In this document: piece after piece, positions 59,248 through 59,421 of the stretch
Numbering within the stretch: position 1 is the stretch's first letter
How the letters are laid out: the number at the start of each line of letters is the position of its first letter
Sequence record: PQ471516.1
Source: Escherichia phage Turkey5
Reading direction: 5' to 3' (one strand)
Length of the DNA: 64,000 bases
Program-made: the position numbers and the translations under genes
The notes under the pieces: model-generated
Told to the model about the DNA's origin: nothing
What the model saw: only the letters and a program-made list of their open reading frames with translations
Databases searched by the model: none

Positions 59248-59325
59248 ATGCAAGCAACGACAATTATCAACGTAGTAGCAGTCACCTTTATTGTAGTACT
59301 GGTAGCATTGAACCTGTTTCTATAA
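59248..59325 (+). CDS. small hydrophobic peptide (25 aa)
   Basis: RBS TAGGAG 8 nt before ATG; MQATTIINVVAVTFIVVLVALNLFL; not in ORF track. Confidence 0.4.
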   Translation: MQATTIINVVAVTFIVVLVALNLFL

Positions 59326-59334
59326 GGAGTAAGT

Positions 59335-59421
59335 ATGGGATTATATCTTGCAATTTCAAGTATTGTCTTTGTTGTTATCGTTACTGGATGGTTTGGGTAT
59401 CTAATGTTAAGTACAAAATAG
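59335..59421 (+). CDS. small hydrophobic peptide (28 aa)
   Basis: RBS AAGGAG before ATG; MGLYLAISSIVFVVIVTGWFGYLMLSTK; not in ORF track. Confidence 0.4.
   Translation: MGLYLAISSIVFVVIVTGWFGYLMLSTK

Follow-up and report, generated by a model that had tools for sequence, protein, structure and literature searches.

Two tandem hydrophobic micro-ORFs occupy a polymorphic, hairpin-bounded slot between virion structural genes of an Asteriusvirus-type jumbo coliphage

The stretch of DNA analysed here (the window) comprises 64,000 nucleotides (nt) of Escherichia phage Turkey5 (PQ471516.1). Near its right end, two tandem open reading frames (ORFs) of 25 and 28 codons, ORF1 and ORF2, lie side by side in the 343 nt that separate two virion structural genes and are otherwise empty. 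An earlier sequence-only reading had described them as single-span hydrophobic micro-ORFs with good ribosome-binding sites, placed between a terminator and a terminator-promoter module. That reading's interpretation is borne out in part. The coordinates and translations are correct, and the two modules are present as hairpins at 59143-59164 and 59420-59439, the second followed by a sigma-70-like TTGACT-17-TATACT. The features of the locus are the following.

59248..59325, plus strand: ORF1, 25 amino acids (aa), MQATTIINVVAVTFIVVLVALNLFL; ATG at 59248, stop codon TAA at 59323-59325.
59236..59240, plus strand: Shine-Dalgarno (SD) sequence AGGAG of ORF1, 7 nt ahead of the ATG.
59335..59421, plus strand: ORF2, 28 aa, MGLYLAISSIVFVVIVTGWFGYLMLSTK; ATG at 59335, stop codon TAG at 59419-59421.
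59324..59329, plus strand: SD sequence AAGGAG of ORF2, overlapping the TAA stop codon of ORF1, 5 nt ahead of the ATG.
59181..59209, plus strand: sigma-70-type promoter TTGACA-17-TACAAT (11/12 matches), with an A/T-rich stretch ahead of it.
59143..59170, plus strand: left hairpin terminator, AAGGTTGAC-TTCG-GTCAGCCTT plus a T-run, directly after the stop codon of the upstream structural gene; a repeated element.
59420..59446, plus strand: right hairpin terminator plus a T-run, its core identical to the left one; it begins within the ORF2 stop codon and its stem carries TTGACT.
59451..59458, plus strand: TATAAATA, a motif of T4 late promoter type, overlapping the sigma-70-like -10 box TATACT, 30 nt ahead of the start of the downstream structural gene.
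58754..59137, plus strand: upstream flanking gene, 127-aa virion structural protein (121Q gp199-like), matching phrog_16530 'virion structural protein' with E 3e-54.
59481..61025, plus strand: downstream flanking gene, 514-aa virion structural protein (121Q gp201-like), matching phrog_20398 with E 9e-211.

Membrane spans were called from Kyte-Doolittle hydropathy, as the best 19-residue mean. This reaches 2.72 in ORF1 and 2.11 in ORF2, the usual threshold for a membrane span being about 1.6, and the grand averages of hydropathy (GRAVY) are 2.17 and 1.58. ORF1 has one hydrophobic span of 20 residues, with two asparagines in it, and no charged residue at all, and the single charged residue of ORF2 is its C-terminal lysine. 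When the 258-nt interior of the cassette was shuffled 20,000 times with dinucleotide composition preserved, 35% of the shuffles contained one or more ATG ORFs of at least 25 codons; only 0.19% contained one with AGGAG or GGAGG in front of it, and none of the 20,000 contained two. The whole window holds 334 ATG ORFs of 20–45 aa on its two strands, and just three of them, including ORF1 and ORF2, have an SD of the AGGAG/GGAGG type; by the same strict definition such a site precedes 10 of the 130 large plus-strand ORFs. Chance does not explain the ORF pair. The third small ORF with a strong SD lies on the minus strand (17796-17704; 30 aa, hydrophobic, MIMLTISGTFIYHLVLLVLLECQQIVCEYV), a strand that is otherwise free of genes and promoters. 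Gene callers usually apply a cut-off of 30 codons, and both ORF1 and ORF2 were missed by annotation because they fall below it.

The promoter at 59181-59209, which the sequence-only reading had not explicitly listed, would place a transcription start near 59216, about 32 nt upstream of the ORF1 ATG, and a homologous cassette promoter is present in the closest phage record, vB_EcoM_JNE01 (JNE01; 94.6%). The two hairpins belong to a repeat family. Its 18-nt core is GGTTGACTTCGGTCA(G/A)CC, the tetraloop is cUUCGg, and a T-run goes with it. Against an expectation of none, the window has six copies of the core, five on the plus strand (48876-48893, 55585-55602, 59145-59162, 59421-59438 and 61036-61053) and one on the minus strand (57585-57602). 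In all but one of the plus-strand copies a recognisable -10 box stands 17–18 nt past the TTGACT of the stem: TATACT at 55585 and 59421, TATAAT at 61036 and, at 48876, a weak TATGGG. At the left hairpin of the cassette (59145) the -10 position holds only a poor TGATTT. The repeated hairpin looks like a composite terminator/promoter of the kind known from T4-type phages as a promoter-early stem-loop (PeSL). Downstream of the right hairpin, TATAAATA (59451), the T4 late promoter consensus, is kept in all relatives compared, those with nothing between the structural genes included; it recurs at 58713 ahead of the gp199-like gene, and in this neighbourhood is found only before the two structural genes. 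The %G+C of the cassette is 29.8, versus 38.3 and 38.6 in the flanking genes, a difference that is partly expected for sequence coding for transmembrane (TM) segments. A structured RNA or known small RNA was considered for the segment and rejected, as no Rfam family was found at threshold and the fold is no better than that of shuffled sequences (z-score +0.55). Overall, the cassette reads as a terminator-insulated transcription unit, of presumed early type, set between two late genes.

The region matches 34 phage records, every one of them from an Asteriusvirus, a genus of jumbo phages, with Escherichia or Salmonella as host (121Q, PBECO4, G17, phAPEC6 and others), which agrees with the phage origin proposed from the sequence alone and, by sequence similarity, identifies the window as part of an Asteriusvirus (a 121Q/PBECO4-like jumbo coliphage). 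The interval between the two structural genes was extracted from 11 relatives. It is occupied in different ways:

Empty slot, UE-S1 and ph0011: structural genes 69 bp apart, with one hairpin and then TATAAATA.
One-gene slot, 121Q, PBECO4, G17 and Salmonella SD-15_S21: a 37-aa single-span ORF (phrog_35037) between two hairpins.
Three-gene slot, fEgEco12, vB_Ec-M-J and CMSTMSU: the 37-aa ORF, an 87-aa multi-TM protein and a 98-aa signal-peptide protein.
Two-gene slot, JNE01: a 97-aa signal-peptide protein, then an unannotated 28-codon homolog of ORF2.
Two-gene slot, window: ORF1 and ORF2, with 343 bp between the structural genes.

Every filled slot has two hairpins and the empty ones have one. 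The left and right hairpins of the window share 22 identical nt, and the sequence of the empty sites is the expected product of recombination between them. The empty state in UE-S1 and ph0011 means that the slot is dispensable. The 97-aa protein of JNE01 is 47% identical to the 98-aa signal-peptide protein; in CMSTMSU (locus L005, 211-468) the 87-aa multi-span gene is broken into ORFs of 48 and 25 aa, apparently by a frameshift or an error in sequencing. The slot that follows gp201 has the same hairpin and again a variable cargo (window 61026-61503; loci L003 3655-3991 and L002 4270-4607). There the window and JNE01 encode a signal-peptide protein of 135 aa, and 121Q and vB_Ec-M-J one of 83 aa that is unrelated to it. 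The alternative cargo of both slots consists of membrane or secreted proteins throughout. What is most informative about ORF1 and ORF2 is their place as cargo in a polymorphic slot bounded by hairpins, which the sequence-only reading did not contain.

ORF2 has relatives in two further phages. The JNE01 homolog, MYLYIAISSIVFVVIVTGWFGYLMLSTK (locus L001 2357-2443; OR670491 277982-278068), is identical to ORF2 at 26 of 28 residues, and the DNA is identical from codon 6 on. It keeps its SD and ATG despite an entirely different preceding gene. The frame is also intact in nine more JNE01-like contigs, drawn from metagenomes or read sets independent of each other, with aspartate at position 2. In phage EJP2, a homolog of 27 codons with its own SD, MTYLSIAVVVFLVLVVCAFGYLMTKGD (locus L022 1813-1896; OQ411014 299744-299827), is 48% identical to ORF2, with an alignment score of 61 that was reached by none of 20,000 composition-preserving shuffles. 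Neither homolog is annotated in its GenBank record, and the family, small as it is, is unannotated in every genome that carries a member. The EJP2 ORF directly follows a gene for a signal-peptide protein of about 100 aa (43% identity to the homologous gene), an arrangement shared with JNE01, and in the window as in both homologs the SD overlaps the stop codon of the preceding gene. Family members have 27–28 aa, one TM span, a short polar or basic tail and 12 invariant columns, the hallmarks being Y4, I7, V11, F12, V14, V16 and the motif FGYLM. Over 21 aligned codons the differences at codon positions 1, 2 and 3 number 10, 3 and 10; the second position is conserved, as expected under selection for hydrophobic coding, and only the ORF2 frame is open in all three phages (window, JNE01 and EJP2). 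Two EJP2-like metagenomic contigs, L033 (SRR5149961) and L034 (SRR10386367), lack the ORF through a clean 102-nt indel with flanks otherwise identical to EJP2, and the indel corresponds exactly to the preceding stop codon, the SD and the 27-codon ORF. This gene-exact indel shows that the ORF2-type micro-gene behaves as a discrete unit of gain and loss, and it is found in three different cassette contexts. ORF2 is, with high confidence, a real gene. In L034 (225-860), a 211-aa protein upstream of the cargo genes has a precomputed Pfam match to PF27024 Phage_T7_kinase.

Relatives of both ORFs were sought by tblastn and by degenerate DNA patterns, the pattern scans requiring at least 10 identical residues and so missing diverged homologs. 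Among phage records these searches returned JNE01 as the only relative of ORF2; IMG/VR, metagenomes and GTDB genomes gave none, E. coli genomes gave none at the DNA level, and the matches in plasmids (E 4) and PDB are chance TM matches. A relationship between the ORF2 family and the 37-aa gp200 family was considered and rejected: the pairwise shuffle test gave p 0.001, but the hhalign probability is only 3.9%.

For ORF1 the situation is different. Conservation of the reading frames, which had been named as a check on the two peptides, holds for ORF2 (JNE01, nine metagenomic contigs, and EJP2 at 48% identity) and does not extend to ORF1, which has no counterpart. Between the window and JNE01, homology runs through the hairpin and the -35 box, fades at the -10 box and returns at the ORF2 SD, and ORF1 sits exactly in the segment that is swapped. 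Two possible origins were examined and rejected. ORF1 is not recognisable as a diverged gp200, a 37-aa protein that shares its position and its initial MQ (shuffle p 0.10 and 0.13), nor as a remnant of the secreted-protein gene, to which it shows no similarity; no homolog of the secreted protein of about 100 aa is present in the window. Because of its signals ORF1 is probably translated, and it is probably evolutionarily young or an orphan. We lean, with some reserve, towards its being more than a translated by-product.

Neither peptide matches Pfam, PHROGs, NCBIfam or PADLOC at permissive thresholds, and PDB sequences give generic TM-helix matches only. No toxin, holin, immunity or defence family is matched by either, and the T4 Imm profile finds neither ORF1 nor ORF2 in Pfam or PHROGs at E ≤1. 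Toxin and superinfection-exclusion roles are both possible and would not be distinguishable by sequence.

The reading that we favour, at somewhat better than an even chance, is that ORF1 and ORF2 encode early, non-essential inner-membrane micro-proteins with an accessory role in the envelope, carried on a moron- or PeSL-like cassette. They would form the two-gene cargo of a small autonomous transcription unit lodged between two late virion structural genes. Host sigma-70 RNA polymerase would start early in infection at TTGACA-17-TACAAT and produce a transcript of about 230 nt, ending at the second cUUCGg hairpin (59420-59446). ORF1 would be translated from its strong SD and ORF2 from the SD that overlaps the ORF1 stop codon, an overlap which suggests that the two are probably translationally coupled. 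Each product, being little more than one TM helix, would insert into the host inner membrane, with the C-terminal lysine of ORF2 expected in the cytoplasm by the positive-inside rule. The unit would be non-essential, and exchanged, gained or lost through recombination at the repeated hairpin/promoter elements. An accessory envelope role is the most probable one because all alternative cargo is membrane-bound or secreted and the slot is dispensable. Judged from this context, the most likely forms of such a role would be a block on the entry of competing phages, or the binding and modulation of a host inner-membrane protein, and any one specific function can be proposed only tentatively.

Several points weigh against the inner-membrane accessory reading. 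The ORF2 family consists of just three diverged lineages, and the JNE01-like copies are nearly identical to one another, so that purifying selection is not properly measurable. The ORF2 homolog is missing from L033 and L034, and UE-S1 and ph0011 have nothing in the slot; this shows that the cargo can be dispensed with, but neutral junk would give the same picture. The window has ORF2 without the gene for a secreted protein of about 100 aa that precedes its homologs in JNE01 and EJP2. Searches of 50,697 phage records, 72,556 plasmids, IMG/VR, JGI metagenomes and GTDB genomes gave no relative of ORF1, and local blastn detected no DNA relative among the compared loci or in the rest of the window; what argues for ORF1 as a coding sequence is its signals, and only these. 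The 'immunity to superinfection' labels on the vB_Ec-M-J cargo are weak or unsupported, the 87-aa protein having no such match. An 82-aa multi-span membrane ORF of the window, just ahead of a hairpin (57326-57574), has a weak match to phrog_1039 'immunity to superinfection' (E 0.004), and EcMJ_535 of vB_Ec-M-J, in the corresponding position, is labelled in the same way. Since the similarity is weak or absent, these labels are not evidence.

Some of these points could also mean that only ORF2 is functional, and that ORF1 is a short hydrophobic frame left behind as a by-product when recombination replaced the cargo gene upstream, perhaps translated and perhaps aiding ORF2 by coupling. ORF1 indeed falls in the swapped segment between the homology blocks of the window and JNE01, its resemblance to gp200 at the same position is not significant (p 0.10, 0.13), it has no relative anywhere searched, and the gene ahead of ORF2 in JNE01 and EJP2 encodes the secreted protein and not a micro-ORF. 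However, the AGGAG of ORF1, at 7 nt, belongs to a class of sites that few ORFs of the window have (3 of the 334 small ATG ORFs, 10 of the 130 large plus-strand ones); the frame begins about 32 nt past the predicted transcription start, ends exactly at the SD of ORF2 and encodes a clean 20-residue hydrophobic span, and a single ORF with such an SD arose in only 0.19% of shuffles. This explanation is considered rather unlikely. At the other extreme, neither ORF would be translated, and the segment would only insulate the late structural genes, either as a regulatory spacer built of terminator, promoter and terminator or as a small RNA. The hairpin/promoter repeats, six in the window, are clearly regulatory, the slot can be empty, and all annotation pipelines ignore both ORFs. 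Against this stand two strong SD–ATG pairs, an ORF2 frame kept at 48% identity with a conserved second codon position, the gene-exact indel in the EJP2-like contigs, and an RNA with no Rfam family and no excess structure. A spacer is very improbable.

Membrane-damaging toxins of the type I kind (Ibs, ShoB, TisB), depolarising or shutting down the host early, are improbable as well, if less so than a spacer. The sizes (25 and 28 aa) and GRAVY values of the peptides fall within the range of Ibs, ShoB and TisB; the two asparagines in the ORF1 span are 14 residues apart, and asparagine within TM helices promotes their oligomerisation; and the strong promoter and SDs suggest high expression. On the other hand, no toxin model is matched in Pfam or NCBIfam by ORF1, and ORF2 has only a chance-level TM match (E 0.23). 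There is no convincing antisense promoter, as promoter-like matches on the minus strand inside ORF2 reach only 9–10 of 12, at chance frequency, and no minus-strand sigma-70 match of at least 11/12 exists anywhere in the window. The short 5' leader and a transcript free of special structure are unlike type I toxin mRNAs, early depolarisation would presumably hurt a phage with the long cycle of a jumbo phage, and the alternative cargo of the same slot is secreted or membrane proteins and no toxins. The peptides could also be holins, antiholins or other modulators of lysis timing; holin-like modulators had been named in the sequence-only reading, and the peptides are small, membrane-spanning and encoded by a phage. 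Holins have at least one TM domain and a charged hydrophilic C-terminal domain, are typically 60–150 aa long, and are late proteins linked to lysis genes and needed for lysis at the right time. At 25 and 28 aa the peptides are far shorter than known holins, ORF1 is uncharged, their neighbours are virion structural genes and not lysis genes, their promoter is of sigma-70 and not of the late TATAAATA type, and the slot is empty (UE-S1, ph0011) or otherwise filled in viable relatives. A holin role is thus unlikely, and a part in lysis timing of any kind is hardly credible.

A bolder version of the favoured inner-membrane accessory reading would make the ORF2-type peptides a new mobile family of single-helix 'micro-morons', each an SD-plus-ORF unit of about 100 nt that passes from one cassette context to another, and acting as inner-membrane effectors of the phage that, for instance, block DNA entry by competing phages or neutralise a membrane-bound defence protein of the host, with ORF1 a membrane micro-gene of recent de novo origin that the same cassette has captured. 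This is speculative and we regard it as unlikely. If true, it would offer a tractable case of jumbo-phage slots, bounded by hairpins, in which new membrane peptides are generated and tested. Apart from this, the locus illustrates how genes of fewer than 30 codons are skipped by phage annotation pipelines: one of them is conserved, unannotated everywhere and cleanly gained and lost. It also shows that a genus of jumbo phages outside the T4 group exchanges small genes for envelope proteins at repeated hairpins that combine terminator and promoter. Should the peptides turn out to keep other phages out or to act on membrane proteins of the host, few known effectors of this kind would be as small, and the peptides would be of use for Asteriusvirus-based phage-therapy cocktails.

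Near-consensus sigma-70 promoters (at least 11/12 matches) number 39 on the plus strand of the window and none on the minus strand, and the window is probably an early, promoter-dense region of small genes. In related jumbo phages RpoD-like early promoters and reliance on host RNA polymerase have been described, together with an ATAAATA-type motif upstream of structural genes (PMC5259590; PMC7318152), the source for the motif being PMC5259590. A cluster of seven tRNA genes lies at 30480-35754 (Leu-taa, Gly-tcc, Ser-tga, Ser-gct, Asn-gtt and two Thr-tgt). The homologs of the gp199-like gene in 121Q and PBECO4 are labelled as structural proteins, and the gp201 homolog bears the same kind of label. 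The gp199 profile phrog_16530 is matched not only by the 127-aa protein (E 3e-54) but also by about 180 N-terminal residues of the gp201-like protein (E 6e-40; 59481-60050), so that the structural genes on either side of the slot are partial paralogs. More distant, metagenomic homologs of gp199 sit in a different gene context. The assembly index has no record of the exact genes for three window proteins, and a second copy of the exact cassette was thus not found.

In size and build the peptides recall bacterial small membrane proteins. Ibs, ShoB, TisB, KdpF, AcrZ, MgrB and MgtS are single-helix proteins of about 19–50 aa in the inner membrane, either toxins or regulators bound to larger membrane proteins. 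ORF1 and ORF2 are likewise predicted single-helix peptides but have no hidden Markov model match and no clear promoter signal for an antisense RNA; complete E. coli genomes contain no homolog at the DNA level, and 10-residue core patterns of the two are unmatched in GTDB genomes. Within the genus, 121Q gp200 (phrog_35037, 37 aa) shares the slot, the orientation, the hairpin pair and the single TM helix, and begins with MQ like ORF1, but is not detectably homologous to ORF1 or to the ORF2 family. Imm and Sp of T4, which act in superinfection exclusion, are small, early, non-essential envelope proteins of a virulent myovirus. At 83 and 97 aa they are similar in size and type to the sister cargo of the slot, the 87-aa multi-TM and the 98-aa (or so) signal-peptide protein, while ORF1 and ORF2 are one-third the size and have no family match in Pfam or PHROGs, and the 87-aa protein has weak unrelated matches and none to Imm. 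The resemblance is by analogy only.

The morons of lambdoid phages, such as HK97 gene 15 (Juhala et al. 2000; Cumby et al. 2012; reviewed in PMC3594210), are another parallel, and HK97 gp15 excludes superinfecting phages (PMC3594210). As in a moron, the cassette has a promoter and a terminator of its own (consensus matches only), deviates from its neighbours in base composition, is inserted between structural genes that are adjacent in relatives, and appears to encode small inner-membrane proteins. In contrast to lambdoid morons it resides in a virulent jumbo phage. Expression from a repressed prophage to the benefit of the lysogen, as in classical morons, probably does not apply to it, and the literature seen gave no evidence of temperate Asteriusviruses; its peptides are also far smaller (25 and 28 aa) and show no sequence similarity. 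The PeSL cassettes of T4-type phages (Arbiol et al. 2010, PMC2839356; Comeau et al. 2014, PMC4122927) are composites of a stem-loop and a sigma-70 promoter that flank ORFans and mediate modular shuffling, with one subclass in which the stem covers the -35 box (PMC2839356; PMC4122927). No description of PeSLs in Asteriusviruses was found in the literature searched. The elements described here resemble them in combining a repeated stem-loop terminator with a sigma-70-like early promoter (six hairpin copies in the window), in flanking small ORFan genes, and in coinciding with the boundaries of indels and replacements between close relatives; some PeSLs, too, lie within virion modules beside plastic genes. 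They differ in belonging to an Asteriusvirus jumbo phage and not to a T4-type phage, in having as stem-loop one specific cUUCGg-tetraloop sequence, GGTTGACTTCGGTCA(G/A)CC, and in that the working promoter of the window and JNE01 would be a separate TTGACA-17-TACAAT, 19 nt past the hairpin. Overall, the cassette belongs to a familiar class, that of ordinary phage accessory genes, and involves no new mechanism; what is modestly new is an unannotated peptide family and the presence of PeSL-like elements in a jumbo phage outside the T4 group.

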